Shown in pieces: positions 15,209-60,006 of a DNA stretch of 64,000 nt. A program made the translations under genes and the position numbers. The first letter of the stretch is position 1, and each line of letters starts with the position of its first letter. Source of the DNA: an uncultured Micavibrio sp. (GTDB taxonomy: Bacteria > Pseudomonadota > Alphaproteobacteria > Micavibrionales > UBA2020); NCBI GenBank assembly GCA_964575605.1, contig CAZNRN010000008.1:47918-111917 (forward strand). The letters are read 5' to 3'. The notes beneath the pieces were generated by a model, which made no database searches, had not been told where the DNA came from, and saw only the letters and a list, made by a program, of their open reading frames with translations.

Positions 15209-16810
<1,602 letters not shown>

Positions 16811-18246: not shown

Positions 18247-19980
<1,734 letters not shown>

Positions 19981-19995
19981 GGCCGGATTCAGGTG

Positions 19996-20025
19996 TTGAC
20001 TCCGGGTGGCCGGTTATTATATAAA
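19996..20025 (+). promoter_or_regulatory. sigma70-like promoter for the mntP leader
   Basis: TTGACT (19996-20001), an 18-nt spacer, then TATAAA (20020-20025). This predicts a transcription start just before riboswitch stem P1 at 20031. Confidence 0.5.
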
Positions 20026-20030
20026 ATCCC

Positions 20031-20134: not shown

Positions 20135-20182
20135 CAGCGCGAAAGCCTTTACCGGCTTGTCTTTCGCAGGCTGTATTGTGTC

Positions 20183-21839: not shown

Positions 21840-21840
21840 C

Positions 21841-24193: not shown

Positions 24194-24194
24194 C

Positions 24195-31092: not shown

Positions 31093-31133
31093 TACCGTCC
31101 CCCTCGTTAATTAAGAAAAAACTATGTCTAGGC

Positions 31134-40206: not shown

Positions 40207-41319
40207 ATGAACAAAGCGCTAAAGCCCCTGCTCCTCGTCGGCAACAACACGGCGCCGGAAACGCGCAAGGCGCTCGAGGAAAGTGGCCAGTTCGAGGTCA
40301 TCACCGCCAGCATCGGCAAATTTGTCAGCGGCGAGCCCTTTGCCGAGCTGCACAAGGGCGAGGAAAAAGTTTACGCCGACAACCTCGCGCGCCTGAAGGG
40401 CGCGAAGGTCTATGTGCTGCAATCGACGTCGGAGCCCGTGGCCGACAGCTTCCAGCACATGCTGCTCATGGCGCATACGCTGAAATATTTCGGCGCGGGC
40501 GACGTGACCGCCATCTGCCCCTTCGCGGCGGGCTTGAGGCAGGACCGCGCGTTCAAGGACCGCTTCACATCGGTCGCGGCCGTGCTGTTCGCGCAGCAGA
40601 TGAAGGCGTCGGGTATCGACGGGGTCATCACCATGACGCCCCATTCCAAGGGCGCGATTGCGGAATACACCAAGGTTTTCGGCGACCGCTTTATTCCGCT
40701 CGCCACCACCAAGATGTTCGCGGATGACATCAAAGCGCGCTTCGGTTGCGACCCGGACCAGCTCTGCATCGGCGCGCCCGACGGCGCGGACAAGGCGACT
40801 GACGAAGGGCAGACACGCGCCCGCGAGCTTGCCAGGGCCATCTTCGGCCGCGCGGACGACGACTGCATGTTCCGCATCTCGAAAACGCATACCGGCGTGA
40901 ACAATACAAAAATCACCGCCTTCGACGGCGATGTGGCGGGCAAGGATTGCGTAATCATCGACGACATGATCGACGGCGGTTCCACCATGAACAACGCTGC
41001 CGCCATGCTAAAGGCGCAGGGTGCCCGTTCCGTCACCTGCTACGCCACGCATGGCATCCTCACGAACAACGCGCTTGAAAAACTGCTGGAGGCCAAATAC
41101 GACGGCATGCACAATGCCATCGATAAAATCGTCATCACCGACAGTATCCCCGGCGCCGCCGAGAAACTGGCCGCACTGCTGGCGCAGCAGCCCAAGCTGG
41201 CCGGCCGCGTGGAAATTTTGTCGGTCGGCGATATGGCCGTGAAACAGGTGAAGAAAGACATGGCGCCCACCGCCGTCCGTCCCGCCGCACAGGGCCCGAA
41301 GGCCGCTTTCGGCCGTTAA
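40207..41319 (+). CDS. ribose-phosphate pyrophosphokinase-like protein (divergent Prs)
   Basis: PRPP-binding loop VIIDDMIDGGSTM and a two-domain PRTase layout. 370 aa. Divergently transcribed from pncB. Confidence 0.6.
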   Translation: MNKALKPLLLVGNNTAPETRKALEESGQFEVITASIGKFVSGEPFAELHKGEEKVYADNLARLKGAKVYVLQSTSEPVADSFQHMLLMAHTLKYFGAGDVTAICPFAAGLRQDRAFKDRFTSVAAVLFAQQMKASGIDGVITMTPHSKGAIAEYTKVFGDRFIPLATTKMFADDIKARFGCDPDQLCIGAPDGADKATDEGQTRARELARAIFGRADDDCMFRISKTHTGVNNTKITAFDGDVAGKDCVIIDDMIDGGSTMNNAAAMLKAQGARSVTCYATHGILTNNALEKLLEAKYDGMHNAIDKIVITDSIPGAAEKLAALLAQQPKLAGRVEILSVGDMAVKQVKKDMAPTAVRPAAQGPKAAFGR

Positions 41320-44604: not shown

Positions 44605-46683
44605 ATGGATAATCGCGTCACACCGACCGAGTCCGGCACTGCTGCCGTCATGGGCGCATCCTATGACGGCAAAGGGGTAAACTTTGCCATCTATTCAAAA
44701 CATGCCGAAAAAATCGAGCTCTGCCTTTTCGACGATAAAGGCGAAAAAGAAATCGAGCGCATCACGCTCCCCGCCCGCACCGGCGACGTCTGGCACGGCT
44801 ATGTGCCGGGGCTGAAACCGGGGCAGGTCTACGGCTACCGCGTGCACGGCCCCTATGACCCCGAAAACGGCCACCGTTTCAATCCGCAGAAACTGCTGCT
44901 CGACCCCTATGCCGCGGAAGTCGTCGGGCAGATCAACTGGACCGAAGAGCAGACCAACCCGCACAAGGACAGCGCGCCCGCCACCGTCAAGGCACGCGTG
45001 GCGGAGCCCCTGCCCGCCTCGACCGTCGCAGCACCCAATATCGCACGCAACGATATGCGCATCGCCGAGATGCATGTGCGCGGAGCGACCATGCTGGACG
45101 AAAAAGTGCCGGAGGAAGTACGCGGCACCTATGCCGGCCTCGCCTCAGACGCCTTTATCGACTACGTCAAGAACGAGCTGAAGGCGAATACCATCGAACT
45201 GATGCCGGCGCATGCCAAGCTCAACGACCTCTTCCTCGTGCAGAAGGGCCTGAAGAATTACTGGGGCTATAACACCGTCGGCTATTTCGCCCCAGAGCCT
45301 GAATATGCGGCGGACAAGGACAACGCCCGCGCCGAATTCAAGGCCATGGTCGACAAGCTGCATGCAAACGGCATAGAAATCATTCTGGATGTCGTCTTCA
45401 ACCACGCGGGCGAAGGGGACGAGCGGGGGCCGACGCTGCTGTTCCGCGGCATCGACAACGCCAGCTATTACCGGCTCGACCCCCGCGACAAGCGCAAATA
45501 CGTCAATGACACCGGTTGCGGCAATACGCTTGATGCCGACAACCCCGCTGTGCGCAAGATGATTTTGGATAGCCTGCGCCATTGGGTGATCGAATACGGC
45601 ATCGACGGCTTCCGCTTCGACCTCGCTCCCGTGCTGGGGCGCAACGCCAGCGGCTATTCGAAAGACGCGCCTTTCTTCAAGGAAATCGAGGCCGACCCCG
45701 TATTGTCGAAAATCAAATTAATCGCCGAGCCCTGGGACCCCGGCCCCGGCGGCTACCAGCTGGGCAACTTCCCCAAGGGCTGGGCGGAATGGAACGACCG
45801 TTTCCGCGACGACGTGCGCAAGTTCTGGCGCGGCGATTACGACACCATCGGCTGGCTGGCGACGCGCCTTGCGGGTTCCGCCCCCGAATTCGACCGCGGC
45901 GGCCGCGTGCCCCAGGACAGCGTGAATTTCATCACCTGCCACGACGGCTTTACGCTGCACGATGTCGTCAGCTATTCGCACAAGCACAACCTGGCGAACG
46001 GCGAGGACAACCGCGACGGCACCGGCGAAAACTACAGCGCAAATTACGGGGCTGAAGGCCTGACCACCGACCACGCCGTGATCGCGCTGCGCGAACAGCA
46101 AAAACGCAACATGCTGGCGACGCTGTTCATGGCGCAGGGCACGCCCATGCAGCTGCTGGGCGACGAGCGCGGCAACAGCCAGGGCGGTAACAACAACGCC
46201 TATTGCCAGGACAACAACACCGGCTGGGTCGAATGGGACGAAACGACGGCGGAGGGCAAAAAAACCGCCGCTTTCGTTAAAAAACTCGCCGAATTCCGCG
46301 ACGAACATTCATACCTCTGCGCCGACCATTTCCTGCACGGCCGCGAAAAATGCGCCGACGGCATCCCCGACCTGCAATGGATCGCCACCAACGGCCAGCC
46401 CCGCACCGACGCCGACTGGCAAAAGCGCGACGATAAATGTTTGGGCATGCTCCTTAACGAAGGCGCCATCACCGGCAAGCCCAAAGGCCGGCGACTGATG
46501 GCGGTGTTCAACAGCGCCGCCTCCTCGACCGAATTCAAGCTTCCCGAACTGAAGGGCGGCAGCGGCTGGGTCAAGGCGCTCGACACCACACAGCCGGGTG
46601 ATGATGGCAAGACAGCTATCGCCGACGGGGCAAAAGTCACTATCCCCGCCCGCTCGGTCGTCGTGTTCGTGCAGGAACCCTGA
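44605..46683 (+). CDS. glgX: glycogen debranching enzyme
   Basis: GVNFAIYS, GYRVHGPYDPENGHRFNPQKLLLDPYA, DGFRFDLA, EPWD and CHDGFTL. Confidence 0.9.
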   Translation: MDNRVTPTESGTAAVMGASYDGKGVNFAIYSKHAEKIELCLFDDKGEKEIERITLPARTGDVWHGYVPGLKPGQVYGYRVHGPYDPENGHRFNPQKLLLDPYAAEVVGQINWTEEQTNPHKDSAPATVKARVAEPLPASTVAAPNIARNDMRIAEMHVRGATMLDEKVPEEVRGTYAGLASDAFIDYVKNELKANTIELMPAHAKLNDLFLVQKGLKNYWGYNTVGYFAPEPEYAADKDNARAEFKAMVDKLHANGIEIILDVVFNHAGEGDERGPTLLFRGIDNASYYRLDPRDKRKYVNDTGCGNTLDADNPAVRKMILDSLRHWVIEYGIDGFRFDLAPVLGRNASGYSKDAPFFKEIEADPVLSKIKLIAEPWDPGPGGYQLGNFPKGWAEWNDRFRDDVRKFWRGDYDTIGWLATRLAGSAPEFDRGGRVPQDSVNFITCHDGFTLHDVVSYSHKHNLANGEDNRDGTGENYSANYGAEGLTTDHAVIALREQQKRNMLATLFMAQGTPMQLLGDERGNSQGGNNNAYCQDNNTGWVEWDETTAEGKKTAAFVKKLAEFRDEHSYLCADHFLHGREKCADGIPDLQWIATNGQPRTDADWQKRDDKCLGMLLNEGAITGKPKGRRLMAVFNSAASSTEFKLPELKGGSGWVKALDTTQPGDDGKTAIADGAKVTIPARSVVVFVQEP

Positions 46684-46821
46684 CCCCTCTACCCGCGCCC
46701 CGTCTTTTCCCGAGTCGTCCCTACGATTCCAAAGTTTCCGCCTACTGTCAGACTTTATGAAAATCGCTCGTTTTGATTTTCTTTTTAAATTCAGTGCTTT
46801 AACAACTCCGTTAAATCATCA

Positions 46822-46879
46822 TTGACTTATACTCTGTAAGATTATAAATAATACTCTCTAAGAGCATATATTATACTCT
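46822..46879 (+). promoter_or_regulatory. putative promoter (TTGACT-N17-TAAATA) overlapped by three ATACTCT direct repeats phased 22 bp apart
   Basis: TTGACT lies at 46822-46827 and TAAATA at 46845-46850. ATACTCT lies at 46829-46835, 46851-46857 and 46873-46879 (indexed base by base). The region is AT-rich and the first operon ATG is at 46916. Confidence 0.5.
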
Positions 46880-46915
46880 TACCGATGATATTCATAATCA
46901 AGAAGAAGAAATCAC

Positions 46916-47836
46916 ATGCGCGCCATCGTCAAAAACAAAAATTCATTGGGTGTACAAAACATCCCCGCCCCGCTACTCACCGCTGACACCGACGTGATTA
47001 TCGAGGTGAAACTGGCGGGGCTTTGCCGCACCGACGTCTTCGTGGCGGAGGGGCGCATCCCCTGCAAGGAAACCCTTGTCCTCGGCCACGAATTTTCGGG
47101 CGTCGTGGTGCAGGCAGGCAGCGATGCCGATTTTTCCCAAGGCGACCGCGTGACGGCCATGCCCGTGCTGCCCTGTTTCGCCTGCGAGCGCTGCGACGCG
47201 GGCCGCGCCGACCAGTGCCAGAGAACCACCATGCTGGGCATCGACGTTGACGGCGCCTTTGCCGAGCGCGTGGCCGTGCCCGCGACCGCCGTCTACAAAA
47301 TTCCCGATACCATGTCCTACCGCCTTGCCGCCTATGCCGAGCCTGTGGCGGCCGCGCTGTCGGTGATGAAATCGGGCATCGAAAAATCGCAGCGCGGCGT
47401 GATTTACGGCAACAACCGCTTCAGCCACCTGATATTGCGCATCATGCGCGCCTATGATTTCAAAAACGTCACCATTCACGACCCGAAAACGGCGGTGCTG
47501 CAGGAATCGCGCTATGATTTTGCCGTTGAAACGCTGGCCGCCAATCAAACCATGAGCGAATTGATGACCGCCGTGAAACCCGGCGGCCGCATCGTGCTGA
47601 AAAGCCGCAAGCATGAACCCGTTGGAATTTGTTTTGCCGAGGCGGTGCGCAAGGAAATCACCTTCACCGCCGTCAACTATGGCGAATTCGGCGAGGCGAT
47701 CCGCTTGATGGCCGAGGGGTTGATTGCAGTGGATGATTTATTGGGCGAGGAATACGGCCTTGGCGATTACGCCACAGTGTTCGAGCGTTCAAAAACGCTG
47801 GAAACCCGCAAGGTTTTCTTCAACCCGGAGAAATAA
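46916..47836 (+). CDS. zinc-dependent MDR alcohol dehydrogenase-like protein
   Basis: GLCRTDVFV, GHEFSGVV and the Cys cluster CFACERCDAGRADQC (structural Zn). Confidence 0.8.
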   Translation: MRAIVKNKNSLGVQNIPAPLLTADTDVIIEVKLAGLCRTDVFVAEGRIPCKETLVLGHEFSGVVVQAGSDADFSQGDRVTAMPVLPCFACERCDAGRADQCQRTTMLGIDVDGAFAERVAVPATAVYKIPDTMSYRLAAYAEPVAAALSVMKSGIEKSQRGVIYGNNRFSHLILRIMRAYDFKNVTIHDPKTAVLQESRYDFAVETLAANQTMSELMTAVKPGGRIVLKSRKHEPVGICFAEAVRKEITFTAVNYGEFGEAIRLMAEGLIAVDDLLGEEYGLGDYATVFERSKTLETRKVFFNPEK

Positions 47837-47837
47837 C

Positions 47838-49751
47838 ATGTGCGGCATCACCGGCATCGTCTCGGCATCTCGCCCCGCAGGCATGGAACAGCTGAAACGC
47901 GGCACCGACGCGCTGGTCCACCGCGGCCCGGACGGCGAGGGTTTTTATATCGCCGCCAATAAAACGGCTGCCCTCGGCCACCGCCGCCTGTCGATCGTCG
48001 ACCTGTCGACCGGCAGCCAGCCGATTTCCAGCGAAGACGGCCGCAAGCACATCGTCGTTAACGGCGAATTCTACGGTCACGCCGACATCCGCCGCGGCCT
48101 TGAAGCACTCGGGCATGTTTTCAAGACAAAGTCCGACAGCGAGATTGCGCTGCACCTGTACGAGGAATACGGCACAGCCTGCCTCGAACACCTGCGCGGC
48201 GAATTCGCCTTTATCCTCTGGGACGAAGACAAGCAGATGCTGTTCGCCGCGCGCGACCGTTTTGGCATCAAGCCGCTGTGCTATACCCAATATAACGGCC
48301 AGTTACTGCTGGCATCCGAGGCGAAAGCCCTGTTTGCCATGGGCGCGCCCGCGGCCTGGGACGATTACAGCTTTTTCCACGCCGCCCAGCTGCAATACAC
48401 GCCGCAGGACCGCACGCTGTTTAAAAACATTTTCCAGCTGAAGCCCGGCCATGCGCTGGTGGCCAAGGGCGGCCGCACCGAAACCTTTAAATACTGGGAC
48501 CTTGATTTCCTGCCCGAAGCGCAAACCGATAAAGGCAGCGAAAAAGACCTCATCGACGCCTTCGCAGCGGAACTGGAACAATCCATCCGCCTGCGGCTGA
48601 TGGCCGATGTGCCGGTCTGTTTCCACCTGTCGGGCGGGCTGGACAGCGCAAGCGTGCTCGGCCTGGCCGCCAGCATCACGGGCAAGCAGCTGGATGCCTT
48701 CACCGTCAGCTTCGGGCATGAAGGCTACGACGAACTGCCCATCGCCGAAGAAATGGCCAAGACCCGCGGCGCGCGCCTGCACGCGGTCCACGTAACGCAA
48801 GAGGATTTAGTGCGCGAGCTGCCCGACGCTGTTTATTACGGCGAAGGCCTCGCCATCAACGGCCACCTGGCCGGCAAATACATGCTGAACCGCGCCATCC
48901 GCCGCGCCGGGTTCAAGGTTGCCTTGACGGGCGAAGGCTCTGACGAAATCCTCGCCGGCTATCCGCACCTGCGGCAGGACCTGCTGCGCGCGGAGGCGTC
49001 GAACGACGTCGCCGCCAAAGCCATGGCGAAAATCTACGCCACCAACGGCGCATCGGCCGGGGTACAAATCGCCCTTGGCGCCCAACTACCGACGCAGGCC
49101 GTGAAAGCGGCGCTGGGGTATACCCCCGCCTTCCTCGAGGCCAAGGCCTCGCTGGGTAGCCGCATGTCCGGCGTGCTCTCGGACGGTTTCGCCGCGCAAT
49201 TCACGCGCACCGACAGCTATGCCGAACTGATGGCGGCAACGCCTGTGGCCGAACAGCTGAAAGGCCGCCACCCCGTGAACCAGTCGTCGTGGATATGGGC
49301 GAAGACGGCGCTGGCCAATTACATCCTGCGCACGCTGGGCGACGGGATGGAGATGGCGCAGTCGGTCGAAGGCCGCCTGCCCTTCCTCGACCACAAGCTG
49401 TTCGAAACCGCGCGCCGCCTGCCGCTGGGCCTGAAAATAAAAGGCATGGTGGAAAAATACGTGCTGCGCGAAGCTGCAAAACCCCACATCACCGATACCA
49501 TCTACCGCCGCCAGAAACACCCCTTCATGGCGCCGCCCGTGACGTCGCATGCCAATGCCGCACTGATGGAACTGGTGGGCGATACGCTGCAATCGGCGAG
49601 CTTCGCCGCACTGCCTTTCTTCGACCGCAAGAAAGCGCTGGCAGCCCTGCACGGACTGCCCGCCATGGCAGCGCCGGAGCGCGCCGCGATGGAGCCCGTT
49701 CTGATGACGATGCTGACCGCTAACATGCTGCAACAGGAATTCGGATTATGA
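47838..49751 (+). CDS. asparagine synthetase B-like glutamine amidotransferase
   Basis: Start MCGITGIV (Ntn Cys2), HRGPDGEG and PP-loop HLSGGLDSA. The start was moved from 47724 to 47838, 1 nt after the upstream stop. Confidence 0.85.
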   Translation: MCGITGIVSASRPAGMEQLKRGTDALVHRGPDGEGFYIAANKTAALGHRRLSIVDLSTGSQPISSEDGRKHIVVNGEFYGHADIRRGLEALGHVFKTKSDSEIALHLYEEYGTACLEHLRGEFAFILWDEDKQMLFAARDRFGIKPLCYTQYNGQLLLASEAKALFAMGAPAAWDDYSFFHAAQLQYTPQDRTLFKNIFQLKPGHALVAKGGRTETFKYWDLDFLPEAQTDKGSEKDLIDAFAAELEQSIRLRLMADVPVCFHLSGGLDSASVLGLAASITGKQLDAFTVSFGHEGYDELPIAEEMAKTRGARLHAVHVTQEDLVRELPDAVYYGEGLAINGHLAGKYMLNRAIRRAGFKVALTGEGSDEILAGYPHLRQDLLRAEASNDVAAKAMAKIYATNGASAGVQIALGAQLPTQAVKAALGYTPAFLEAKASLGSRMSGVLSDGFAAQFTRTDSYAELMAATPVAEQLKGRHPVNQSSWIWAKTALANYILRTLGDGMEMAQSVEGRLPFLDHKLFETARRLPLGLKIKGMVEKYVLREAAKPHITDTIYRRQKHPFMAPPVTSHANAALMELVGDTLQSASFAALPFFDRKKALAALHGLPAMAAPERAAMEPVLMTMLTANMLQQEFGL

Positions 49752-50536
49752 CCCCCGACGCACAGGAAAGAACCAAAGCCAGCTGGTGCGAAGATTTCTT
49801 CGACGACCTTTTCGCCGAACACTGCCTTGCAACCCGCACGCCAGACGAGCTGCAGGCCATCACCACCTTCCTGCAGCGTGAGCTGAAACTTGGAACCGGC
49901 GACGCCGTTTTCGACCAGTGCTGCGGCATTGGCACGCTCAGCCTTGCGCTGGCGAAGCGGGGGTTGCGCACCTTTGGCGTCGACCTTATCCCTTCCTACA
50001 TCGACACGGCAAAAAACGCGGCGGTAAAGATGCAGGCCGCCTGCACTTTCGCTGCGGCCGACGCGGCTTTCTATTGCCCACCCGTGCCCTGCGACGCCGC
50101 TATCAACTGGTGGACCAGTTTCGGTTATTTCGAGGACGACGCCGAAAACCTGAAAATGCTGAAAGCCGCGCGCCGCAGCCTGAAGCCCGGCGCGTCCTTT
50201 GCGCTTGATTACATGAACACGCCCGAACGCCTTGCGCTGATGGGCGGCAGGCCCGTGACGTCATGGCGCGCGGAAAAACCCGGCTGCGTCGTCTCCTGCG
50301 ACACCCGCATCGACGGCCGCATGCTGGTCAAGGACTGGAAATACGAAGGCGCGGATAGCAGGAAGGTTGAAAAACGCGGCGGCGGCGTCAAGCTGTACAC
50401 GCAGCAGGAACTCGAAAGCCTGCTGGAGCAGGCCGGTTTCACCGCCGTCCGCTTCTATGGCAGTGTCAAGGGCGAGGCACTGGCCGTCAACAGCCCGCGC
50501 TGCATCGCCATCGCGCAAAACGGCAGTGCGCCATGA
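49748..50536 (+). CDS. class I SAM-dependent methyltransferase
   Basis: Motif I VFDQCCGIGTLSLALA, followed by GVDL and LKPGASF. ATGA overlap on both sides. Confidence 0.8.
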   Translation: MTPDAQERTKASWCEDFFDDLFAEHCLATRTPDELQAITTFLQRELKLGTGDAVFDQCCGIGTLSLALAKRGLRTFGVDLIPSYIDTAKNAAVKMQAACTFAAADAAFYCPPVPCDAAINWWTSFGYFEDDAENLKMLKAARRSLKPGASFALDYMNTPERLALMGGRPVTSWRAEKPGCVVSCDTRIDGRMLVKDWKYEGADSRKVEKRGGGVKLYTQQELESLLEQAGFTAVRFYGSVKGEALAVNSPRCIAIAQNGSAP

Positions 50537-51354
50537 TGCTGCCCTTTCCGCAGGCAGATAACGAAACTTTCCGCCGCGCGGTCTATGCGGGCGGCATCTT
50601 CCGCATACCCGCCACCACGCTTTCGGCGACGTTGGCGGCGGAAGTGATGGAGACGATGGCCGCGTATTTTGGCGCCCCCGGGACCGCGCATGAACGATAT
50701 ACATTTGCTGATATGCAGCCCGCCATGTCCGCTGCCCGCGCGGAGCTGGCGTCGCAACAGCGCTACCGCGATATCCAGTCGCAACTGCTGGCGGCTGCGG
50801 GTTTCACGCCTGATGAGCTTGCCGTCGACGCCTTGCGCCTGCGCTGCGTAATGAATAACGGCCACCTGAACAAGGGCGCGGAACTGGCCTATACCGCCCA
50901 CCGCGATACATGGTACGGCAACCCTCAGGCACAGCTGAATTTCTGGATGGCGCTGCATGACGTGACGCCGGCGCAAAGCTTTACCTTCTATCCCTCGCTC
51001 TTCACCCGACCGGTGGCGAATACATCGCAGGGTTTCAGCTATGCGACGTGGATGGAAAAACGCGGCTGGCAAGGCGCGAAAAGCGACGCGGCGGTGGAAT
51101 ACCCCGTCGTGCTGGAACAGCCGCAAGACACTGCCGCCTTTTCCTTCACGGCCAGTGCCGGCGATATGATCGTCTTTTCGGCCGCGCAACTCCACCAAAC
51201 CGTTAAAAATTCGAGCGGCATCACGCGTTACAGCCTCGATTTCCGCGCCGTGCACCTGGGCGACCACAAGGCAGGTTTGGGCGCGCCCAATGCCGACAAC
51301 GGCTCGCAGCCCGAGGCGCTGAAGGATTACTACACGCCGGGCAGGGCGGCATGA
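50533..51354 (+). CDS. PhyH-like Fe(II)/2-oxoglutarate oxygenase-like protein
   Basis: AHRDTWY (HxD), NFWMALHDV and AGDMIVFSAAQLHQTVKNSSGITRYSLDFR (distal His plus Arg) fit the PhyH/2OG oxygenase facial triad layout. Confidence 0.6.
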   Translation: MMLPFPQADNETFRRAVYAGGIFRIPATTLSATLAAEVMETMAAYFGAPGTAHERYTFADMQPAMSAARAELASQQRYRDIQSQLLAAAGFTPDELAVDALRLRCVMNNGHLNKGAELAYTAHRDTWYGNPQAQLNFWMALHDVTPAQSFTFYPSLFTRPVANTSQGFSYATWMEKRGWQGAKSDAAVEYPVVLEQPQDTAAFSFTASAGDMIVFSAAQLHQTVKNSSGITRYSLDFRAVHLGDHKAGLGAPNADNGSQPEALKDYYTPGRAA

Positions 51355-54300
51355 AAACGCTCTGGCAGCACATGGCGCCTTCCGCGGCCATCGCCATCCG
51401 CGACAATGGCCGCGAGATCAGCTATGCCGAAATGCTCGGCCGCGCCGCCGCGCTGGGTGAAAAGCTGAAGGCACAGGGCGTTACGTCCGAAACCCCGGTT
51501 GCGCTATCGCTGGAGAAATCGGCAGAATACATCATCGCGCTGCTGGCTGTCTGGCATGCGGGCGGGGCTTTTGTCCCGCTGCCGCCATCGCTGCCGGAGG
51601 AACGCCGCAAATTTATTATCGGCGACGCGGGCATCAGGCATTTCATTTCCCGTGAAGACGTAACGGCAGAGACAGCTTCTACCGCGCCTTTCGCTGCGCA
51701 AGCCGGTGCGCTTGCCTATATCATCTATACATCGGGCTCGACGGGCAGGCCCAAGGGCGTGATGGTCGAGCACCGCGGCTTGATGAACCTGTTTTCGGCG
51801 CAGGCGAAAGCTTTCGGCATGAAGGCCGGAAGCCGCTCGCTCTTCTGCCTCTCGGTCAATTTCGACGCTTCGGTGTCGGATATCGGCGTAGCGCTCTATG
51901 CCGGCGCGATGCTGGTGATTGATGGCAGCGACAGGCCCTTGCCGCAGGTGATGCGCACCCATGCCATCACCCATATCGACATGCCGCCCGCGCTGCTGAA
52001 ATCGATGCAGCCTGCCGATATGCCCGACAGCCTTGAAACCATCATTATCGGCGGCGAGGCCTGCCCGCCCGCGACGGTGCGCGACTTTGCCCGGAAATTC
52101 CGCGTCGTCAACGTCTATGGCCCGACCGAGGCGACCGTCTGCACCAGCCTGAATATCTGCGACGCCCAAACCTGGGACAAGCCCCTGATCGGCAACCCGC
52201 TGCCCGATGTCGAGTATGCCGTTATCGACGGTGAGCTGCAAATAGGCGGCGGCATGCTGGCGCGCGGGTATGTCAACCTGCCCGCGCTGACTGCCGAAAA
52301 ATTCATTACACGCGGCGGAAAGCGATTTTACCGCACGGGCGACAGCGTGCGCGAAACGCCGCAGGGGCTTGAATTCCTCGGCCGCATCGACCGCCAGTTC
52401 AAGCTGCGCGGCCAGTTGGTGGAACCGGACGAGGTCGAGGCACAGCTGCGCAGCCATCCGCAGGTGATGAAAGCGGCCGTTATCAAACGCGGCGAACAGC
52501 TGGTCGCCTTCGTCGCGCTGTCCGATAAATCCGCCAAAGCGGGTTTGGCGGACTGGCTGGCGGCACGCTTGCCCGCCTATATGGTGCCGCAGCATTTCGA
52601 GGTCGTTTCGCGCCTGCCATTGACGGTCACCGACAAAATCGATTATGCCGCACTGGCAACCCTGCCGCTGCAGACCGATCGCGCGCGCATCGTTCCCCGT
52701 ACCGAGACCGAAAAAAAGCTCTTCGCCATCTGGCAGGCCGTATTGAAACACGGCGATTTTGGCGTGACCGACGCCTTTTACGCCGCGGGCGGGGATTCGC
52801 TGGGCATTATACGCATGGCGATGGAATCCGAGCGGCAAGGGCTGCCGCTGTCTCCAGAGTTTATCGCGCGGCACATGACTATCGAGGCACAGGCCGCACA
52901 TATGGGGCAGAACGCCAGCGCACTTTCCGCCGCATGGCTGAAAGAAGACGTTGCTTTTTCGAAAGAAGACATTCAGTTGCTGGAAAAGGCTGCGCAGCGC
53001 CCCGCTACCCCTGCAAAACTTGAAAATATCCTGCTGACCGGCGCAACGGGTTTCCTCGGCTCGCGCGTATTGTGTGAATTGCTGGCGCAGACGAAGGCCA
53101 CCGTTTACTGCCTTGTGCGCGCACCCGATGCAGCCGGCGCGTTGCAGCGCATGATCGACGCGGCGGCGAAATTCGCCGTGCCCGCGACAGACTGGTCGCG
53201 CGTAGTGCCCGTCACCGGCGACCTGACGCAGCCATGCGGCGGACTGGACGCCGCCGCATGGCAAAGCCTTGCCGATAATATTGACGCCATTTACCACTGC
53301 GCCGCCTGCGTCAATATGGTGCTGCCCTATGCCGATATGCGGGCGGCGAATACGGGCGCGGCGCTCGAACTGCTGCGCCTTGCCGCTACGGGCAAACGCA
53401 AATCGCTGCATTACGCTTCGACCCTGTCGGTTTTCGTTGCGACGGACCAGAACACCGGCACATTGCTGGAAAGCGACCGCCTTGAAAACGTCACCACCGT
53501 TTACGGCGGCTATGCCCAGACGAAATTCGCAGCGGAATGGATGCTATTGCAGGCGCCGCATGAGGCCGTGCCTGTATCGCATTACAGGTTGGGATTGATT
53601 ACCGGCGATACAGTAACGGGCGCGGCTTCGGCCACCGATTTCCTCGCGCTGTTCTTCAAGGGCGCGCGCGAGCTGGGCGCTATGCCGGAAGAGGCGTTGA
53701 AAACCCTCTCGGTCGATATCACGCCGCTCGATTACGCCGCAAAAGCGCTGGTTTCCCTCTCCCTGGGCGGCAGGCCCGATGTTTACCACATCGCAGGCAA
53801 GGGCGTGACGCTGGAGCAGCTGGTGAAGCCGCTGAACCTGCGCGCCCTGCCGAAAACCCGCTGGCTGGAGATGATGCGCAACAAGCCGCTGGGCATGGAA
53901 GAAACCGCGGCCGCCCTGTCGCTCTGCCGCATCTTCGGCGACGCGGAATTTTCGCGCCACCGCACCATGGACCTGTTTCAGGCGACCAGCGTTATCTTTG
54001 ATACCCGCAATACAGATGCCGTCCTAGATTTCACCTGCCCGCCTGCGGATGAAAAACTGATTTCGCTTTATGCCGCGCAATCGCTGAAAGGCGCGCCGCG
54101 CGTGAAAATCTGCCTTTTCGGGCCGGAGTCGACGGGCAAGTCGACGCTGGCGGAAAAGCTGGCGGGGCATTACAAGGCGGCCTTCGTGCCCGAATACGCC
54201 AAGCAGCATATCGCGGCCAATGACGGCGATATCGGCTATGACGATATCCCGAAAATCGCGGCGGGACAGGCAAAGGCGGAATCGGCTGCGAAAACCGCAC

Positions 54301-54617
54301 CGCTGCTGTTCTGTGATACCGACCTGATCACCACCACGATCTGGAGCGACTGGCTGTTCCGCGACTGCCCGCAGTGGGTGCGTGACGCGGCCGAGGCCTC
54401 GCGCTATGACCTTTATTTGCTGATGGATGTCGATACGCCCTGGGTGGCCGATATCCACCGCTACCTGCCCGAAGACCGCGCGAATTTTCTCGCCCGCTGC
54501 GAAGACGAATTGCGCGCCCGCGGACTGCGGTATATAAAGCTGTCGGGCAGCTGGGACGATAAATTCAAAAACGCCTGCGCCGAAGTCGAGAAGGTCAGAG
54601 GAGAAAAACATGCTTGA
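51351..54617 (+). CDS. NRPS-like adenylation - PCP - thioester reductase fused to a NadR-type P-loop kinase (AAA_28-like) domain
   Basis: A domain: YIIYTSGSTGRPKGV, FDASVSD, YGPTE and YRTGD. PCP: GGDSLG (~52791). R domain: LLTGATGFLGSRV (~53031) and YAQTK. C-terminal ~175 aa: ICLFGPESTGKSTLAEKLA...FCDTDLITT...LLMDVDTPWVAD, which aligns by eye with the E. coli NadR ribosylnicotinamide kinase domain. Confidence 0.85.
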   Translation: MKTLWQHMAPSAAIAIRDNGREISYAEMLGRAAALGEKLKAQGVTSETPVALSLEKSAEYIIALLAVWHAGGAFVPLPPSLPEERRKFIIGDAGIRHFISREDVTAETASTAPFAAQAGALAYIIYTSGSTGRPKGVMVEHRGLMNLFSAQAKAFGMKAGSRSLFCLSVNFDASVSDIGVALYAGAMLVIDGSDRPLPQVMRTHAITHIDMPPALLKSMQPADMPDSLETIIIGGEACPPATVRDFARKFRVVNVYGPTEATVCTSLNICDAQTWDKPLIGNPLPDVEYAVIDGELQIGGGMLARGYVNLPALTAEKFITRGGKRFYRTGDSVRETPQGLEFLGRIDRQFKLRGQLVEPDEVEAQLRSHPQVMKAAVIKRGEQLVAFVALSDKSAKAGLADWLAARLPAYMVPQHFEVVSRLPLTVTDKIDYAALATLPLQTDRARIVPRTETEKKLFAIWQAVLKHGDFGVTDAFYAAGGDSLGIIRMAMESERQGLPLSPEFIARHMTIEAQAAHMGQNASALSAAWLKEDVAFSKEDIQLLEKAAQRPATPAKLENILLTGATGFLGSRVLCELLAQTKATVYCLVRAPDAAGALQRMIDAAAKFAVPATDWSRVVPVTGDLTQPCGGLDAAAWQSLADNIDAIYHCAACVNMVLPYADMRAANTGAALELLRLAATGKRKSLHYASTLSVFVATDQNTGTLLESDRLENVTTVYGGYAQTKFAAEWMLLQAPHEAVPVSHYRLGLITGDTVTGAASATDFLALFFKGARELGAMPEEALKTLSVDITPLDYAAKALVSLSLGGRPDVYHIAGKGVTLEQLVKPLNLRALPKTRWLEMMRNKPLGMEETAAALSLCRIFGDAEFSRHRTMDLFQATSVIFDTRNTDAVLDFTCPPADEKLISLYAAQSLKGAPRVKICLFGPESTGKSTLAEKLAGHYKAAFVPEYAKQHIAANDGDIGYDDIPKIAAGQAKAESAAKTAPLLFCDTDLITTTIWSDWLFRDCPQWVRDAAEASRYDLYLLMDVDTPWVADIHRYLPEDRANFLARCEDELRARGLRYIKLSGSWDDKFKNACAEVEKVRGEKHA

Positions 54618-55716
54618 ACGCACCGCCGAAATCGTCGAGGGCATCGAAAGCGAATTCGTGGGGCACGGCCTCGCCTTCGGCAAGTTCATGCCGCCCACCA
54701 ACGGGCATATCTACTTTCTCAACTTTGCCCGGAAATCATGCCGAAAGCTGACCATCCTCGTCTGCTCGCTGCCGACCGAACCCATCCCGGGTGAGCAGCG
54801 TTACAAATGGATCAAGGAGCTGTTCCCCGACTGCAACGTCGTGCACCATTACATCGACATCCCGCAGGAGCCCAAGGGCCCCGGCGACATCGCGTTTTTC
54901 GAGACATGGCGCGACAGTATCCACAAGCACTGCCCCGGCGAAACCTTCGACGCGCTTTTCGCGTCGGAATCCTACGGCTATAACGTCGCGAAAATCATGG
55001 ATATCAAATTCGTGCCCGTCGACGTCAAGCGCGACCTGGTGCAGATATCGGGCACCGCCATGCGTGACAACCCCTTGCAGCATTGGGAACACCTGCACCC
55101 CGTCGTGCGCCCCTATTTCCTGAAGCGCATCGCCGTGGTCGGCCCTGAATCGACCGGCAAATCGATGCTGGCGAAAAACCTGGCCGCGCATTTCGGCACG
55201 GTGCATGTCGGCGAATACGCCCGCGCCATGCTGACCGATTACGCGGCGAACATCCCGGGCTTCGATGTGTCCAAACCAACGCTGCGCGATTTTTCGACCA
55301 TTGCGCGCGGGCAGGTGGCGTCGGAGGAATCTTTATCCCGTCAAGCCAACCGTTTACTGGTCTGCGACACCGAGCTTGCCACCACCGCCTATTGGGCGCG
55401 GCATTTCTTTGGGCAATGCCCGCACTGGATCGAAAAAGCGGCTGAGGCGCGGAAATACGACCTTTACATGCTGCTCGACCCCCGCGGCATCGAAAAACAC
55501 TATGCCGATGACGCACTGCGCTTTATGCCGAAGCTGGAGGACCGTATTGCCATGTTCGACTGGTGGAAGGCGGAGCTGACCCGCCGCGGCCTGCCCTATG
55601 CCGTGATATCGGGCGATGACTGGCGCGCAAGGTTCCAGCAGGCCGTCGTCGCCGTCTACCAGAATATCCCCGGCATGATTTCGGCCGAAGGCGCAAGACT
55701 TGGCAGTGCCGCCTGA
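54610..55716 (+). CDS. NadR-family bifunctional NMN adenylyltransferase / ribosylnicotinamide kinase homolog lacking the HTH domain
   Basis: FGKFMPPTNGHIYFLNFA resembles E. coli NadR FGKFYPLHTGHIYLIQRA. ISGTAMRDNP is present. The kinase domain reads VVGPESTGKSMLAKNLA...VCDTELATT. 8-nt overlap (ATGCTTGA) with the upstream gene. Confidence 0.8.
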   Translation: MLERTAEIVEGIESEFVGHGLAFGKFMPPTNGHIYFLNFARKSCRKLTILVCSLPTEPIPGEQRYKWIKELFPDCNVVHHYIDIPQEPKGPGDIAFFETWRDSIHKHCPGETFDALFASESYGYNVAKIMDIKFVPVDVKRDLVQISGTAMRDNPLQHWEHLHPVVRPYFLKRIAVVGPESTGKSMLAKNLAAHFGTVHVGEYARAMLTDYAANIPGFDVSKPTLRDFSTIARGQVASEESLSRQANRLLVCDTELATTAYWARHFFGQCPHWIEKAAEARKYDLYMLLDPRGIEKHYADDALRFMPKLEDRIAMFDWWKAELTRRGLPYAVISGDDWRARFQQAVVAVYQNIPGMISAEGARLGSAA

Positions 55717-55733
55717 ACTGCTGTAAACTGGCG

Positions 55734-56234
55734 GTGGAGGTCCCCATGCGCCAGCGCCGTTCTGCCGGAAAATTCTTTTTTCAGCGATTGCTGATTATCG
55801 GCCTTATCATCGTCTTTGGCGCGCCTGCCGCGCTGAAGGAAATGGCGACGCTGAACCCGCTCGACCCCACGGGCCGCGTCGACAGCTATCGCGCCGCAGC
55901 CGCGCCGCGCCTGCCCGACAGCCGCCGCATCCATATCCTCTATGGCGACGACCACGGCGGCGGGCACCTGCATGGCGTGAACAGGCCCTGCAAATCCGAA
56001 TTTCCCGCCGACTGGAGCGAAAAAGACATCGTGGCCTCCGTCAAGGCAATCGCCGCCAACGACAACCTCGGCTGGCAGCGGCAGAAAAACGGGAATGTGG
56101 TGGCAGACACAGTCGACCATGGCGTGAAAATCCGCGTCGTGCTGAACAGCGACCTGACCGAAATCGTCACGGCCTATCCGCTGTCGACGCCGCGCAACGC
56201 CTGCCCGGCCGCCAACGACAACGAAAAAGATTAA
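55734..56234 (+). CDS. membrane-anchored/exported EndoU_bacteria-like nuclease-domain protein
   Basis: N-terminal hydrophobic helix FFFQRLLIIGLIIVFGAPAAL. Then HILYGDDHGGGHLHG...CKSEFPADWSEKDI...GVKIRVVLNSDLTEIVTAYPL, which matches my recollection of the bacterial EndoU toxin-domain profile. The alternative ATG start is at 55746. Confidence 0.65.
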   Translation: MEVPMRQRRSAGKFFFQRLLIIGLIIVFGAPAALKEMATLNPLDPTGRVDSYRAAAAPRLPDSRRIHILYGDDHGGGHLHGVNRPCKSEFPADWSEKDIVASVKAIAANDNLGWQRQKNGNVVADTVDHGVKIRVVLNSDLTEIVTAYPLSTPRNACPAANDNEKD

Positions 56235-57241
56235 ACTTCGTCCTTATAGGGATGCGTCACGCCGTTGAAGTCGGTGACGTCGTAACCGTCTCCGTTTTCT
56301 GCGATGCGGGCGGCGCCTGCCGGCACCTTGCCGTGGCCGCCCGGGATATCCAGCATATAATGCGGCTGAGCGATGCCCGACAGCCTGCCAAGCAGCGAAG
56401 ACACCAGCGCGCGCCCCTCTTTCAGCGTCACGCGGAAGTGCGAAGTACCCGGCGCCATATCGGGATGGTGCAGGTAATAGGGCTTTACCTTCATCGCCGT
56501 AAAGGCGCGGAACAGCTGTTCCAGCACGCCCGCGTCATTATTGACGCCCTTCAGCAACGTGGATTGAGATAATAACGGTATGCCCGCCGCGATAAATTTC
56601 TGCGCCGCCGCCTTGACCGTGTCGGTCAGTTCGCGCGGATGGTTGGCGTGGAAGACGACATAGACGGCTTTATCGGACGCCAGCGCCGCGACCAGTTCAT
56701 CGGTCACGCGCGAGGGGTCGGCCACCGGCACGCGCGTGTGGTAACGCACCACCTGCACATGCTGCATTTCGTTCAGCGCCACCATGATTTCCGACAGACG
56801 CCGCGGCGACAACACAAACGGGTCGCCGCCCGTGACAATCACTTCCCAGATGGTGGGCGTGTTGCGGATATAGGCCAGCGCCTTCTGCAATTCCTCGCGG
56901 CCCAGCATCTCGCTGCCCGGTCCCACTTTTTCGCGGCGGAAACAGAAGCGGCAATAGACGGCGCAGACATGCACGGGTTTCAGCAGCACGCGGTCCGGAT
57001 AGCGGTGCACGATGCCTTTGACGGGCGAATGCGCGTCGTCGCCGATAGGGTCGGCCAGTTCGCCGGGCGTTGTTTTCAGCTCTTCGGCCGAGGGCAGGTA
57101 TTGCTTCGCAATAGGGTCGGCGGGGTCAGTGGCGTCCACCAGCTCCATCACCTCGTCCGTCACGGCCACGGCATAGCGCTCCATCACCTCTGCGAGGGGA
57201 TCGTCGGGGGAGAGCGTTTTTGCTTGAGGTTTTGTTGCCAT
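56231..57241 (-). CDS. KamA-family radical SAM lysine 2,3-aminomutase-like protein (EpmB/YjeK-like)
   Basis: CAVYCRFCFRRE (CxxxCxxC), VIVTGGDP and YYLHHPD. 336 aa. Confidence 0.85.
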   Translation of the reverse strand: MATKPQAKTLSPDDPLAEVMERYAVAVTDEVMELVDATDPADPIAKQYLPSAEELKTTPGELADPIGDDAHSPVKGIVHRYPDRVLLKPVHVCAVYCRFCFRREKVGPGSEMLGREELQKALAYIRNTPTIWEVIVTGGDPFVLSPRRLSEIMVALNEMQHVQVVRYHTRVPVADPSRVTDELVAALASDKAVYVVFHANHPRELTDTVKAAAQKFIAAGIPLLSQSTLLKGVNNDAGVLEQLFRAFTAMKVKPYYLHHPDMAPGTSHFRVTLKEGRALVSSLLGRLSGIAQPHYMLDIPGGHGKVPAGAARIAENGDGYDVTDFNGVTHPYKDEV

Positions 57242-57745: not shown

Positions 57746-57982
57746 ATGACCAACGCCGAATTCCGCGTCTGGCTGACAGGCTATTTCGAACTGGCCGACG
57801 GCGACACCCCGCTGAACGCGCAGCAGGCGCTGGTGATCATCAACCACCTGAACCTGGCCGAAGCGGTCGAGGGCAAGCTGGACGCGCAGAACGACAATAT
57901 CCGCAACACCCTGCGCAGCTTCATCCAGAATAATTCCGATGCCGCCGATGTCACCGCGCGCGTGCAGGGATTGCTGACGTGA
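57746..57982 (+). CDS. hypothetical protein (~79 aa), paralog pair member 2
   Basis: MTNAEFRVWLTGYFELADGDTPLNAQQALVI parallels TEFAYYLQGYFEIDGNDRALTNAQAKKV in the preceding ORF. The ORF track starts at 57722. Confidence 0.5.
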   Translation: MTNAEFRVWLTGYFELADGDTPLNAQQALVIINHLNLAEAVEGKLDAQNDNIRNTLRSFIQNNSDAADVTARVQGLLT

Positions 57983-58536
57983 AAAACTGCCGCCTTGTCA
58001 TCCCTGCTGTTGCCTATGTGGCCAGCTATGCCGAAGCCTTGAAGGAAGGCCATCGCTGTGGCGCCGACGCCGTGCATGACGACGCCGAGATCGCGGAAAT
58101 CCTTGCCGACCCCGCCGCCTTTATCGCGGAACTGACCGGCCCCAAACCCGCCACCTTTATCGACGAACTGGGCGAGGAAGTGGAGCGCGTGCCCTCGACC
58201 ACCGTCTGGCTGCTGGAAGGAGACACGTTTATCGGCGACGCCGGCATCCGCCACCGCCTCAACGACAAGCTTTTCAAATCGGGCGGAAATATCGGTTACG
58301 GCGTGCGGCCGTCGAAACAGGGCAAGGGTTACGCGACCGAAATGCTGCGCCAGTGCCTTGTCTGGTGCCGTGATAACCTCGGGCTGGAACGCGCGCTTCT
58401 CACGTGCCGCGTCGATAACGAGGCCTCAGCCCGCGTCATGGAAAAAAACGGCGGCGAGCTGATCGATATCACCCCACACCCCTATGCCATTGGAATGATG
58501 CAGAAAAGATACTGGCTGCCCGTTCCGCCCAAATAA
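57979..58536 (+). CDS. GNAT-family N-acetyltransferase
   Basis: IGYGVRPSKQGKGYATEML...VDNEASARVMEKNGGEL is an acetyl-CoA binding core. GTGA overlap with the upstream ORF. Confidence 0.8.
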   Translation: MKNCRLVIPAVAYVASYAEALKEGHRCGADAVHDDAEIAEILADPAAFIAELTGPKPATFIDELGEEVERVPSTTVWLLEGDTFIGDAGIRHRLNDKLFKSGGNIGYGVRPSKQGKGYATEMLRQCLVWCRDNLGLERALLTCRVDNEASARVMEKNGGELIDITPHPYAIGMMQKRYWLPVPPK

Positions 58537-58647: not shown

Positions 58648-60006
58648 ATGACGACGACCGCACCGAAGAAAAAGAAGAACACCAAAGAACAGGAAGCCCC
58701 GACCGTGGGCATCGTGTCGCTCGGCTGCCCCAAGGCGCTGGTCGATACGGAGCGGATTCTGACGCAGCTGAGATCCGAAGGTTACCAGCTCTCCCCCGAT
58801 TACGCAGGCGCGGACATGGTGATCGTAAACACCTGCGGCTTCCTCGACAGCGCGAAGAAGGAATCGCTGGAGGCCATCGGCGAAGCGATGAGCGCCAACG
58901 GCAAGGTCATCGTGACGGGCTGCATGGGCGCCGAGCCCGAGCAGATTACCAAGGAATTTCCCAAGGTGCTGGCCGTGACCGGCCCGCAGCAGTACGAAGC
59001 CGTGGTCAGCGAAGTGCACAAGGTAGCACCCCCGCCGCACGACCCCTTCGTCGACCTCGTCCCGCCGCAGGGTATCAAGCTGACGCCCCGCCATTATGCG
59101 TATTTGAAGATTTCCGAGGGCTGCAACAACCGTTGCACCTTCTGCATTATCCCTAAGCTACGCGGCGACCTCGTCTCTCGCCCTGTTATTCAGGTGCTGG
59201 CGGAAGCCGAACGCCTTGTGAAGGCGGGCGTGAAGGAAATCCTTGTGATCTCGCAGGATACTTCCGCTTACGGCATCGATACCAAATACCAGGCCTATCC
59301 GTATAAAAACCGTACGGTGCGCACGAAGTTCATCGACCTGTGCAAGGAACTGGGCGAGCTGGGCGTCTGGGTGCGTTTGCACTACGTCTATCCCTATCCG
59401 CATGTGGACGAGGTTTTCGGGTTGATGAACGAGGGCAAGGTCCTGCCCTATATCGACATCCCCTTCCAGCATGCTTCGCCCGCGGTGCTGAAAAACATGC
59501 GCCGCCCCGCGCACCAGGAAAAAACGCTGGAGCGCATCAAAAGCTGGCGCAAGATGTGCCCCGACCTCACCATCCGATCGACCTTCATCGTCGGCTTCCC
59601 CGGCGAAACGGACGCGGATTTCGAATTGCTGCTGCAGTTCATGAAAGAGGCGGAGCTGGAGCGCGTCGGCTGCTTCAAATACGAACCGGTGACGGGCGCC
59701 GATTCAAACAAGATCGAGCCCCACGTCGCGCCCGAAGTGATGGAAGAACGCTACCACCGCTTTATGACGCTGCAGCAGGAAATTTCGGCCAAGAAACTCG
59801 CCGCGAAAATCGGCCGCACCCTGCCCGTGCTGATCGACAGCGTCGGCCAGGAAGGTGCGCTCGGCCGTTCATCCGCCGACGCCCCCGAGATTGACGGCAA
59901 CGTGAAAATCATGAGCAAAAACCTGAAACTCGCCCCCGGCGACCTCGTCAACGTCAAAATCACCGAAGCCGACGAATACGACCTGACCGGCAAGCTGGCG
60001 GTTTAA
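58648..60006 (+). CDS. rimO: ribosomal protein S12 methylthiotransferase
   Basis: [22 protein letters not shown], radical [11 protein letters not shown] and a C-terminal TRAM region. Confidence 0.9.

Follow-up and report, generated by a model that had tools for sequence, protein, structure and literature searches.

A translationally coupled cassette links a nonribosomal peptide synthetase-like reductase to a NadR-type nucleotide module in several bacterial phyla

Kinase and adenylyltransferase pairs build nicotinamide adenine dinucleotide (NAD), flavin adenine dinucleotide (FAD) and coenzyme A (CoA). Here, we describe an operon in which such a pair is hard-wired to a reductase of the nonribosomal peptide synthetase (NRPS)-like type. 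The operon lies in a stretch of 64,000 nucleotides from an uncultured Micavibrio sp. of the Alphaproteobacteria (GenBank assembly GCA_964575605.1, contig CAZNRN010000008.1, positions 47,918 to 111,917 of the forward strand), which we refer to as “the window”; unless stated otherwise, coordinates are positions within it. Six genes of the window form one coupled unit, most of which recurs as a cassette in distant lineages. We propose, with a probability of roughly 0.4, that the cassette is regulated and self-contained, and that its end product is a small, adenylylated metabolite of the dinucleotide type (i.e., NAD-like) derived from one polar α-amino acid. None of the parts falls outside known families; the novelty lies in the way that an adenylation-thiolation-reductase (A-T-R) enzyme is coupled, by conserved linkage and sometimes by fusion, to a NadR-type module.

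The six genes are all on the + strand, at 46916-55716. The first encodes a Zn-dependent medium-chain dehydrogenase (46916-47836, 306 aa) and the second an AsnB-like glutamine-dependent amidotransferase (47838-49751, 637 aa). These are followed by genes for a class I S-adenosylmethionine (SAM)-dependent methyltransferase (49748-50536, 262 aa), a PhyH-type Fe(II)/2-oxoglutarate (2OG) oxygenase (50533-51354, 273 aa) and a protein of 1088 aa (51351-54617) in which adenylation, peptidyl carrier and thioester reductase domains (A-PCP-R) are joined to a NadR-type P-loop kinase, here called K1. The last gene (54610-55716, 368 aa) encodes a NadR-like protein lacking a helix-turn-helix (HTH) domain and consisting of a domain like nicotinamide mononucleotide (NMN) adenylyltransferase (NMNAT) and a kinase, K2. 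Read from the sequence, the dehydrogenase and AsnB-like genes meet at TAAcATG (47834-47840), ATGA overlaps at 49748, 50533 and 51351 form the next three junctions, and the A-PCP-R-K1 and NadR-like genes share an 8-bp overlap, ATGCTTGA (54610-54617). Together, the six genes are one coupled unit, and the open reading frames (ORFs) and overlaps are all as a first-pass annotation of this DNA had claimed. Its domain calls are likewise backed by Pfam or NCBIfam, the nucleotidyltransferase call by NCBIfam and an alignment to NadR rather than by Pfam. Its claim of two NadR-type modules holds in part: there are two NadR-type kinase domains, K1 and K2, but a single NMNAT-like nucleotidyltransferase domain, and the second kinase is a lineage-specific elaboration. 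The operon has a GC content of 0.58-0.62, matching the remainder of the window, so there is no sign of recent import.

To define the distribution of the cassette, one genome per species was scanned with the reductase C-terminus plus the kinase as query, 80 of 379 relatives' loci were kept, and the proteins of the window were mapped onto these 80 species-level loci. The full core (dehydrogenase, AsnB-like protein, A-PCP-R and NadR-like protein) is present in 40 of the 80, and it is colinear in 35 of those 40. Both the methyltransferase and the oxygenase accompany the core in 30 of the 40 cassettes, and six have neither. The methyltransferase, missing from seven, is accessory, as is the oxygenase, which mostly co-occurs with it. 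Contig ends cut 13 of the 80 loci, and 27 consist of the NadR-like gene alone. Cassettes occur in Alphaproteobacteria, Magnetococcales, Planctomycetota, Melainabacteria/Obscuribacterales, Myxococcota, Armatimonadota and Acidobacteriota, i.e., in at least seven phyla, several of which include predatory lineages. The cultured carriers are Stieleria magnilauensis and Rhodopirellula sp. SM50 (Planctomycetota) and Sulfidibacter corallicola (Acidobacteriota). The recurrence of this gene order in several phyla is far beyond chance. A lack of co-conservation was one of the grounds on which the first-pass annotation had said its proposal could fall, and the gene set is in fact strongly co-conserved. 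When the flanking ORFs of 36 cassette loci were clustered, no further gene was conserved across phyla and no transporter, flippase, transferase or phosphoribosyltransferase was co-conserved.

The 1088-aa protein is the centre of the cassette. Its adenylation domain (~51384-52658; AMP-binding, AMP-binding_C) is followed by the carrier (~52716-52901; PP-binding), the thioester reductase (~53025-54080; NAD_binding_4) and K1 (~54105-54566; AAA_28, 1.5e-33). The carrier has the serine of its GGDSL motif and the reductase its YxxxK motif (YAQTK), while condensation and thioesterase domains are absent. The reductase and adenylation domains exceed NCBIfam cutoffs, the reductase with 235.5 bits against TIGR01746 (cutoff 213.35) and the adenylation domain with 325.4 against TIGR01733 (cutoff 317.4). 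About 50 database clusters have the same fusion as the window protein, with Alphaproteobacteria metagenome-assembled genomes (MAGs) as the named sources; more distant A-PCP-R relatives, which lack the kinase, number in the hundreds. Neither the 1088-aa protein nor P0001 had an exact match in a contig index.

The specificity code of the adenylation domain was read via alignment to PheA (1AMU) at positions 235, 236, 239, 278, 299, 301, 322, 330, 331 and 517. In the window, the code is DASDIGVVCK. Asp235 and Lys517 are retained, which indicates that the predicted substrate is an α-amino acid, and the discriminating position 239 is Ser. The code is DASD[IVL]GV[VI]CK in all 34 cassettes analysed, even though their adenylation and carrier regions are as little as 33% identical (range, 33-80%). 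This invariance implies that the same single polar amino acid is used in every lineage. The nearest codes, which we take to be DAQDLGVVDK for Gln, DAKDLGVVDK for Glu and DAESIGSVCK for Lys, would suggest a substrate with a long polar side chain (Gln-, Glu- or Lys-like). A text search found the cassette code in no paper, and found no paper with two or more of six reference codes together.

Fusions within the cassette take three forms. First, the window and other Alphaproteobacteria have the A-PCP-R-K1 fusion. Second, P0073 (25 members) and P0081 are single chains of A-PCP-R, NMNAT and kinase, located behind the same dehydrogenase and AsnB-like genes; over ~320 residues, their nucleotide modules share 43-45% identity with the NadR-like protein of Stieleria, and the motifs are intact. 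Third, P0072 has a methyltransferase ahead of A-PCP-R. Moreover, no complete cassette lacks the NadR-like gene, and in all of them it is translationally coupled. The fusions imply that the nucleotide module acts in the same pathway as the reductase. Two other apparent fusions, of the dehydrogenase to the AsnB-like protein and of the PhyH-like protein to the adenylation domain in Sulfidibacter (L054), were rejected as artefacts of over-extended ORFs in GC-rich DNA.

The NadR-like protein of the window can be aligned over its full length to solved NadR proteins (8x7f, 9x6f and 1lw7), and matches TIGR01526 over residues 19-342 (1.8e-62). The alignment begins at the NMNAT domain, i.e., there is no HTH. 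The score of 211.5 bits is under the TIGR01526 cutoff of 341, as are those of the Stieleria cassette copy (302.5) and of a Nostoc homologue linked to the transporter gene pnuC (301); since the PnuC-linked protein also fails, the cutoff excludes the whole HTH-less clade. The NMNAT-like domain (~54664-55104, + strand) is under the Pfam threshold for CTP_transf_like (17.6 vs 21) and above that of TIGR00125 (33.5 vs 27.7). It has the motifs GKFMPPTNGH and QISGTAMR, in which the first His of HxGH is replaced by Thr; in non-alphaproteobacterial cassettes, the motif reads PPHxGH.

The two kinase domains differ in how much they have diverged. K1 is canonical, with a GPESTGKS Walker A motif, a CDTDL Walker B motif, the lid VDTPWVADIHRYLP, and the Glu and Asp of the nicotinamide riboside (NR) site. 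In K2 of the window (~55126-55635, + strand; AAA_28), both Walker motifs and the NR-site Glu and Asp are likewise intact, but nine residues are inserted and the lid is remodelled. In L002, L012 and L016, the alphaproteobacterial cassettes without methyltransferase and oxygenase, two of them labelled Micavibrio, the P-loop of K2 is lost and, judged by this motif, K2 is dead. Only Alphaproteobacteria and Magnetococcales have an extra kinase, which is fused to the reductase in the former and encoded by its own gene of 170 aa in the latter. In the other lineages, A-PCP-R lacks a kinase and a single NMNAT-kinase gene comes after it. This arrangement with one NadR-like gene is commoner and probably ancestral.

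What does a NadR-like protein of this kind do elsewhere? Stand-alone homologues are 45-57% identical over the kinase region, and 18 of the 27 lie directly after pnuC (PF04973, 2e-60), a gene found in none of the cassette loci. Experiments have shown that imported NR is converted to NMN and then to NAD by an HTH-less NadR-like enzyme that is paired with PnuC, and Bas30_86 (phage NARP3 Bas30_86/87) is an experimentally characterised example with a crystal structure that reveals its NAD contacts (PMC13464706). Residues K25, F26, H33, F117, S119, V144 and I146 of the window protein correspond to K10, F11, H18, F110, S112, V139 and I141 of Bas30_86. The NAD-contact positions are identical or conservatively replaced in both PnuC-linked and cassette groups and are lost only in Melainabacteria, and cassette proteins, that of the window included, keep E230 and D275 of the NR site. 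Both groups are at least 80% conserved at 155 alignment columns; they differ from each other at only six of these, and at four of the six the change is conservative. Planctomycetota cassette copies average 55% identity to PnuC-linked copies, compared with within-group averages of 62-66%. At the sequence level, then, the cassette NadR-like proteins look nearly indistinguishable from PnuC-linked NR salvage enzymes. A plasmid search with the NadR-like protein found only ordinary NadR or PnuC-linked genes.

In Melainabacteria and some Cyanobacteria, a protein of two tandem NadD (nicotinate-nucleotide adenylyltransferase) domains is encoded just ahead of a NadR-like gene in which the NMNAT domain has lost HxGH (at 7972-9276 of L031; also in L053, L056, L057, L060, L062, L063, L069, L075 and L076). 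The tandem NadD scores 281 bits against NF000840 (cutoff 150). Its position beside a decayed NMNAT domain suggests that the adenylyltransferase function is kept via a different pyridine-nucleotide enzyme.

The AsnB-like protein, the dehydrogenase and the oxygenase retain their catalytic residues, as does the reductase. The AsnB-like protein matches GATase_7 and Asn_synthase (7.6e-76) in Pfam and scores 438 against TIGR01536 (cutoff 267). Read from its true start, ATG 47838, it has the obligatory Cys2 nucleophile (MCGI); the SGGLDS PP-loop is also present. Its best relatives in the Protein Data Bank (PDB) are the hydroxyamidotransferase TsnB9 (7ylz) and E. coli AsnB (1ct9). It does not reach the AsnB equivalog NF006949 (291 vs 499) and is also below the cutoffs of the PEP-CTERM, NAGGN and lasso-cyclase subfamilies. 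The methyltransferase matches Methyltransf_25, Methyltransf_23 and Methyltransf_31 and has a conserved DQCCGxG motif. PDB sequence searches with the methyltransferase, dehydrogenase and AsnB-like proteins found generic relatives only.

The dehydrogenase, encoded in every complete cassette, belongs to a family of 582 clusters (alignment A4), nearly all of 300-340 aa. It matches ADH_N (6e-26), and its catalytic Zn site (GLCRTD, GHEFSG, EPVAA) and four structural Cys are invariant across the family. The GxGxxG loop is exchanged for an invariant G161-x3-G165-x-N167-R168 (G-x-I-x-G-x-N-R), and ADH_zinc_N is below its cutoff (21.9 vs 31.8). The fold of the medium-chain dehydrogenase/reductase superfamily is nevertheless normal: the AlphaFold2 (AF2) model has a mean predicted local distance difference test score (pLDDT) of 95 and template-modelling (TM) scores of 0.86-0.90 to threonine, polyol and DHPS dehydrogenases. 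The exchanged loop may mean that the cofactor, or possibly a phosphorylated substrate, is unusual. The oxygenase scores 26.6 bits against PhyH (cutoff 22). H123-R-D125, H221, R232 and R238 are invariant, preserving the HxD...H triad and the Arg that binds 2OG. A PDB sequence search with this protein found no match. The AF2 model (pLDDT 94) has the double-stranded β-helix fold, and in a Foldseek search with it the nearest structures were PtlH, MysH, SptF, SnoN and SyrB2, with TM scores of ~0.5 and identities of 17% or less; the probability was 1.00 for the top matches PtlH, MysH, SptF and SnoN. The oxygenase family is small, with 72 clusters at E <= 1e-5, nearly all of 260-330 aa.

These observations can be assembled into one conserved pathway, in which all steps but that of the NadR-type module are well supported by the sequence. 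The adenylation domain would pick one polar amino acid, identical in every lineage, and load it onto the carrier, and the Tyr/Lys-competent reductase would free it as an aldehyde or alcohol. The Ntn-type amidotransferase would add a carboxamide, and the Zn enzyme, which resembles polyol and threonine dehydrogenases, would carry out one alcohol/carbonyl redox step. Where encoded, the oxygenase and methyltransferase would introduce a hydroxyl and a methyl group. Finally, the NadR-type module would phosphorylate a pathway intermediate and then adenylylate it with ATP. The substrate of the module is expected to be NR-like or NMN-like, or NR or NMN itself, rather than a simple choline-like alcohol, because the module is near-identical to genuine NR kinase/NMN adenylyltransferases at conserved and ligand-contact positions.

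Several points weigh against this proposal. The order of the steps is our reconstruction, and the product, substrate and activity are predicted from sequence only. The cassette encodes no ribosyl or phosphoribosyl transferase, so a riboside substrate would have to come from general metabolism. The assignment of the code as Gln-, Glu- or Lys-like is tentative. The residues compared in the NadR-like proteins may be mostly catalytic or ATP-binding, not specificity-determining, and one lid position does split the groups cleanly, with Q in the PnuC-linked group, V in the cassette group and H in K1. Finally, the NMNAT domain and K2 of the window itself are more diverged, with ~43-47% identity to both groups.

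An alternative, proposed in the first-pass annotation, is head-group activation, in which an amino alcohol freed by the reductase is phosphorylated by the kinase and then turned by the NMNAT-like enzyme into a nucleoside diphosphate (NDP)-amino alcohol, a donor for decorating a lipid or glycan, following the logic of LicA/LicC, ECT and TagD. The kinase is indeed fused right behind the reductase, as is the whole NadR-like module in P0073 and P0081; the cytidylyltransferase-like superfamily is known to include alcohol-phosphate nucleotidyltransferases; and the Zn dehydrogenase resembles enzymes for small polar alcohols. However, the 36 cassette loci share no co-conserved phosphotransferase, glycosyltransferase, flippase or transporter, none of the six proteins belongs to a choline-kinase or LicC-type family (Pfam, NCBIfam), and the kinase and NMNAT pockets are nearly unchanged relative to NR salvage enzymes, which is unexpected for an acyclic amino alcohol. 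The resemblance to NadR and the lack of a co-conserved transferase or transporter therefore weaken the LicA/LicC reading, which we regard as doubtful, and favour an adenylylated, NAD-like product. The second suggestion of the first-pass annotation, a product derived from NR or NMN, fits the sequence evidence better than its first.

In a second alternative, the five other genes make a molecule derived from an amino aldehyde or amino alcohol, e.g., a cyclic imine, piperidone or pyrazine, and the NadR-like protein only salvages NR to NMN to NAD, perhaps feeding the two steps that depend on a nicotinamide cofactor or guarding the producer from an NAD-directed product. The NadR-like proteins do resemble unmodified salvage enzymes, α-amino aldehydes released by A-T-R enzymes such as AusA and PvfC are known often to cyclise spontaneously, and genes for NAPRT-like, Prs-like and NadE-like proteins lie 6-13 kb upstream in the window. 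Against it, the NadR-like gene is coupled in every complete cassette and is fused to the reductase in at least two ways. Further, where the NMNAT domain is lost, it is apparently replaced by the adjacent tandem NadD, and PnuC, the usual partner in salvage, is never found in cassette loci, yet precedes 18 of the 27 stand-alone homologues. We consider this division of labour unlikely.

Far less probable is a supply route for NAD itself, in which the cassette replaces PnuC by making a riboside or mononucleotide for the NadR-like enzyme, with the AsnB-like protein in a NadE-like amidation role. In its favour, NadR-like homologues are mostly either beside pnuC or inside a cassette, never both; AsnB and NadE share PP-loop amidation chemistry, as is well established; and MAGs labelled Micavibrio (L012, L016), a genus known for small genomes, have retained the cassette. 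Against it, a ribosyl transferase is missing from the cassette, neither the methyltransferase nor the oxygenase is obligatory, the window already encodes NadE-like and NAPRT-like proteins (both below NCBIfam cutoffs), and, on chemical grounds, an α-amino acid bound by Asp235 and reduced at C1 gives no simple cyclisation to pyridine-3-carboxamide. De novo formation of the nicotinamide ring from an activated amino acid was rejected for the same want of a plausible cyclisation to a 3-carboxamide pyridine.

If the product is indeed NAD-like, it bears on NAD metabolism, antimetabolite warfare and cofactor diversity. The breadth of the cassette and its invariant code point to a widespread, hitherto unrecognised nucleotide-linked metabolite rather than a strain-specific antibiotic. 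A more specific version, speculative and on balance improbable, is that the product is a new adenine-dinucleotide-type metabolite (a cofactor, NAD analogue or antimetabolite) of at least seven phyla, whose non-adenosine half comes from a reduced, amidated polar amino acid. With three cultured carriers, the question is directly testable.

The proposal that the cassette is regulated comes from its AT-rich leader (46822-46890, + strand). There, TTGACT (46822-46827) is followed by three imperfect palindromes of 20 nt each, TTATACTCTGTAAGATTATA and two variants, at 46827-46890. The palindromes, of the form TTATACTCT...ATA, are phased at exactly 22 bp and overlap the putative promoter. The repeat block is kept in L005, L001 and L006, whose proteins share 60-80% identity with those of the window, and the neighbouring intergenic DNA is not. 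L001, L006 and L007 have the inverted repeat TATACTC-N5-GAGTATA. This selective conservation suggests that the leader is a promoter overlapped by operator sites of a putative regulator. The putative promoter was missed by a sigma-70 scan, terminator-like matches were only at background level, and an Rfam scan of 46500-47100 found no riboswitch or other family.

The genes downstream of the cassette are neighbours rather than members. Starting 17 nt past the NadR-like stop codon is a gene (55734-56234, + strand) whose small product has an EndoU_bacteria domain and a hydrophobic N-terminus. Beyond it are a convergent KamA-family gene (56231-57241, - strand; TIGR03822, 485 bits), a GNAT acetyltransferase gene (57979-58536, + strand) and rimO (58648-60006, + strand). 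Many alphaproteobacterial loci, but none from other phyla, have an EndoU, KamA and RimO block alongside the cassette; an inserted two-component system parts the two in L001 and L006. EndoU, KamA-like and RimO proteins were thus rejected as cassette members, since their restriction to Alphaproteobacteria and the insertions point to synteny. The first-pass annotation had prudently left the KamA-family gene unlinked.

Upstream, three genes touch on NAD metabolism. They encode an oversized NadE-like protein of 1178 aa (33412-36948, - strand; CN_hydrolase and NAD_synthase, far below NCBIfam cutoffs), an NAPRT/NAMPT-like phosphoribosyltransferase of 642 aa (38143-40071, - strand; 238 bits, below cutoff) and a Prs-like paralogue of phosphoribosyl pyrophosphate (PRPP) synthetase (40207-41319, + strand). 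A NAPRT-like gene is also upstream of the cassette in L001, the closest long relative, and the NAD-related genes are not beside the cassette in other phyla. They could supply the phosphoribosylation step that the cassette lacks, or their presence could be coincidental. After these come genes for a C92 peptidase, a weakly PDEase-like protein, a major facilitator superfamily (MFS) transporter and GlgX.

Other features of the window are further away. A purine run (purM, purH, purL, purD, purC and purF) occupies 20835-32624 on the - strand, and several of its members are far under the cutoffs of NCBIfam equivalogs (e.g., 115 vs 190 for purC), as would fit an alphaproteobacterial lineage that branches deeply or evolves fast. 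A pair of ORFs (205 and 223 aa; 16814-18099, + strand) lies between guaA (14915-16810) and guaB (18295-19980), the first beginning 4 nt past guaA. They have no Pfam match and a GC content at third codon positions (GC3) of 0.44-0.47, compared with ~0.8 elsewhere, and may be a foreign insertion. A manganese (yybP-ykoY) riboswitch (20023-20121, + strand; 53 bits, cutoff 45) precedes a gene for the manganese-efflux protein MntP (20090-20767, + strand), which probably starts further downstream, since the longest ORF overlaps the aptamer. Lastly, a 1337-aa ORF (9376-13389, + strand) resembles a CitMHS/ArsB-type transporter over its first ~470 residues, the other ~870 having no Pfam match.

How does the cassette compare with what has been described? 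Neither the cassette nor its product is described in the searchable literature (most subscription journals are outside its reach), nor, within the same texts, is an A-PCP-R protein fused to a NadR-type kinase or module. NCBIfam has no equivalog for the cassette proteins, their source annotations are generic, and PADLOC defence models gave no match beyond generic methyltransferase similarity. The first-pass annotation had known of no pathway with this combination, and none emerged from the searchable literature, NCBIfam or the source annotations.

Four groups of known systems come closest. First, the A-T-R enzymes of reductive release (MxcG of myxochelin biosynthesis, the aminoadipate reductase Lys2, carboxylic acid reductases (CARs), AusA/PvfC) share the series of adenylation, carrier and thioester reductase domains without condensation or thioesterase domains, and MxcG is the best curated match of the 1088-aa protein (residues 12-826). 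The window protein is nevertheless far under the cutoffs of the MxcG, CAR and Lys2 equivalogs (482 vs 2300, 174 vs 1300 and 244 vs 1030, respectively) and, unlike the known enzymes, cassette reductases carry a fused kinase of nucleotide metabolism or an entire NadR-like module. Second, class II amidotransferases that act on carboxylates other than aspartate (PhzH, β-lactam synthetase, TsnB9, NAD synthetase) share with the AsnB-like protein a Cys2 glutaminase and an SGGxDS adenylating domain. Third, PnuC-paired, HTH-less NadR-like enzymes (NARP3, and NadR of Haemophilus influenzae and Lactococcus lactis) have the same layout of NMNAT, then P-loop kinase, and the same catalytic motifs. In contrast to these, the cassette copies are coupled or fused to A-PCP-R and never beside pnuC, and the window has a duplicated kinase, with K1 fused and the lid of K2 remodelled. 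Fourth, PanK-PPAT-DPCK (CoA), RibF (FAD), LicA/LicC and ECT/CCT follow the common logic of a kinase and then a nucleotidyltransferase. Those families themselves are absent here, and LicA and LicC have other folds than NadR-type domains. The second kinase of Alphaproteobacteria recalls DPCK or NAD kinase, again in logic only. By analogy with these pairs, the P-loop kinase and the (H/T)xGH-superfamily enzyme of the cassette would make an ADP- or NDP-linked compound from an alcohol.

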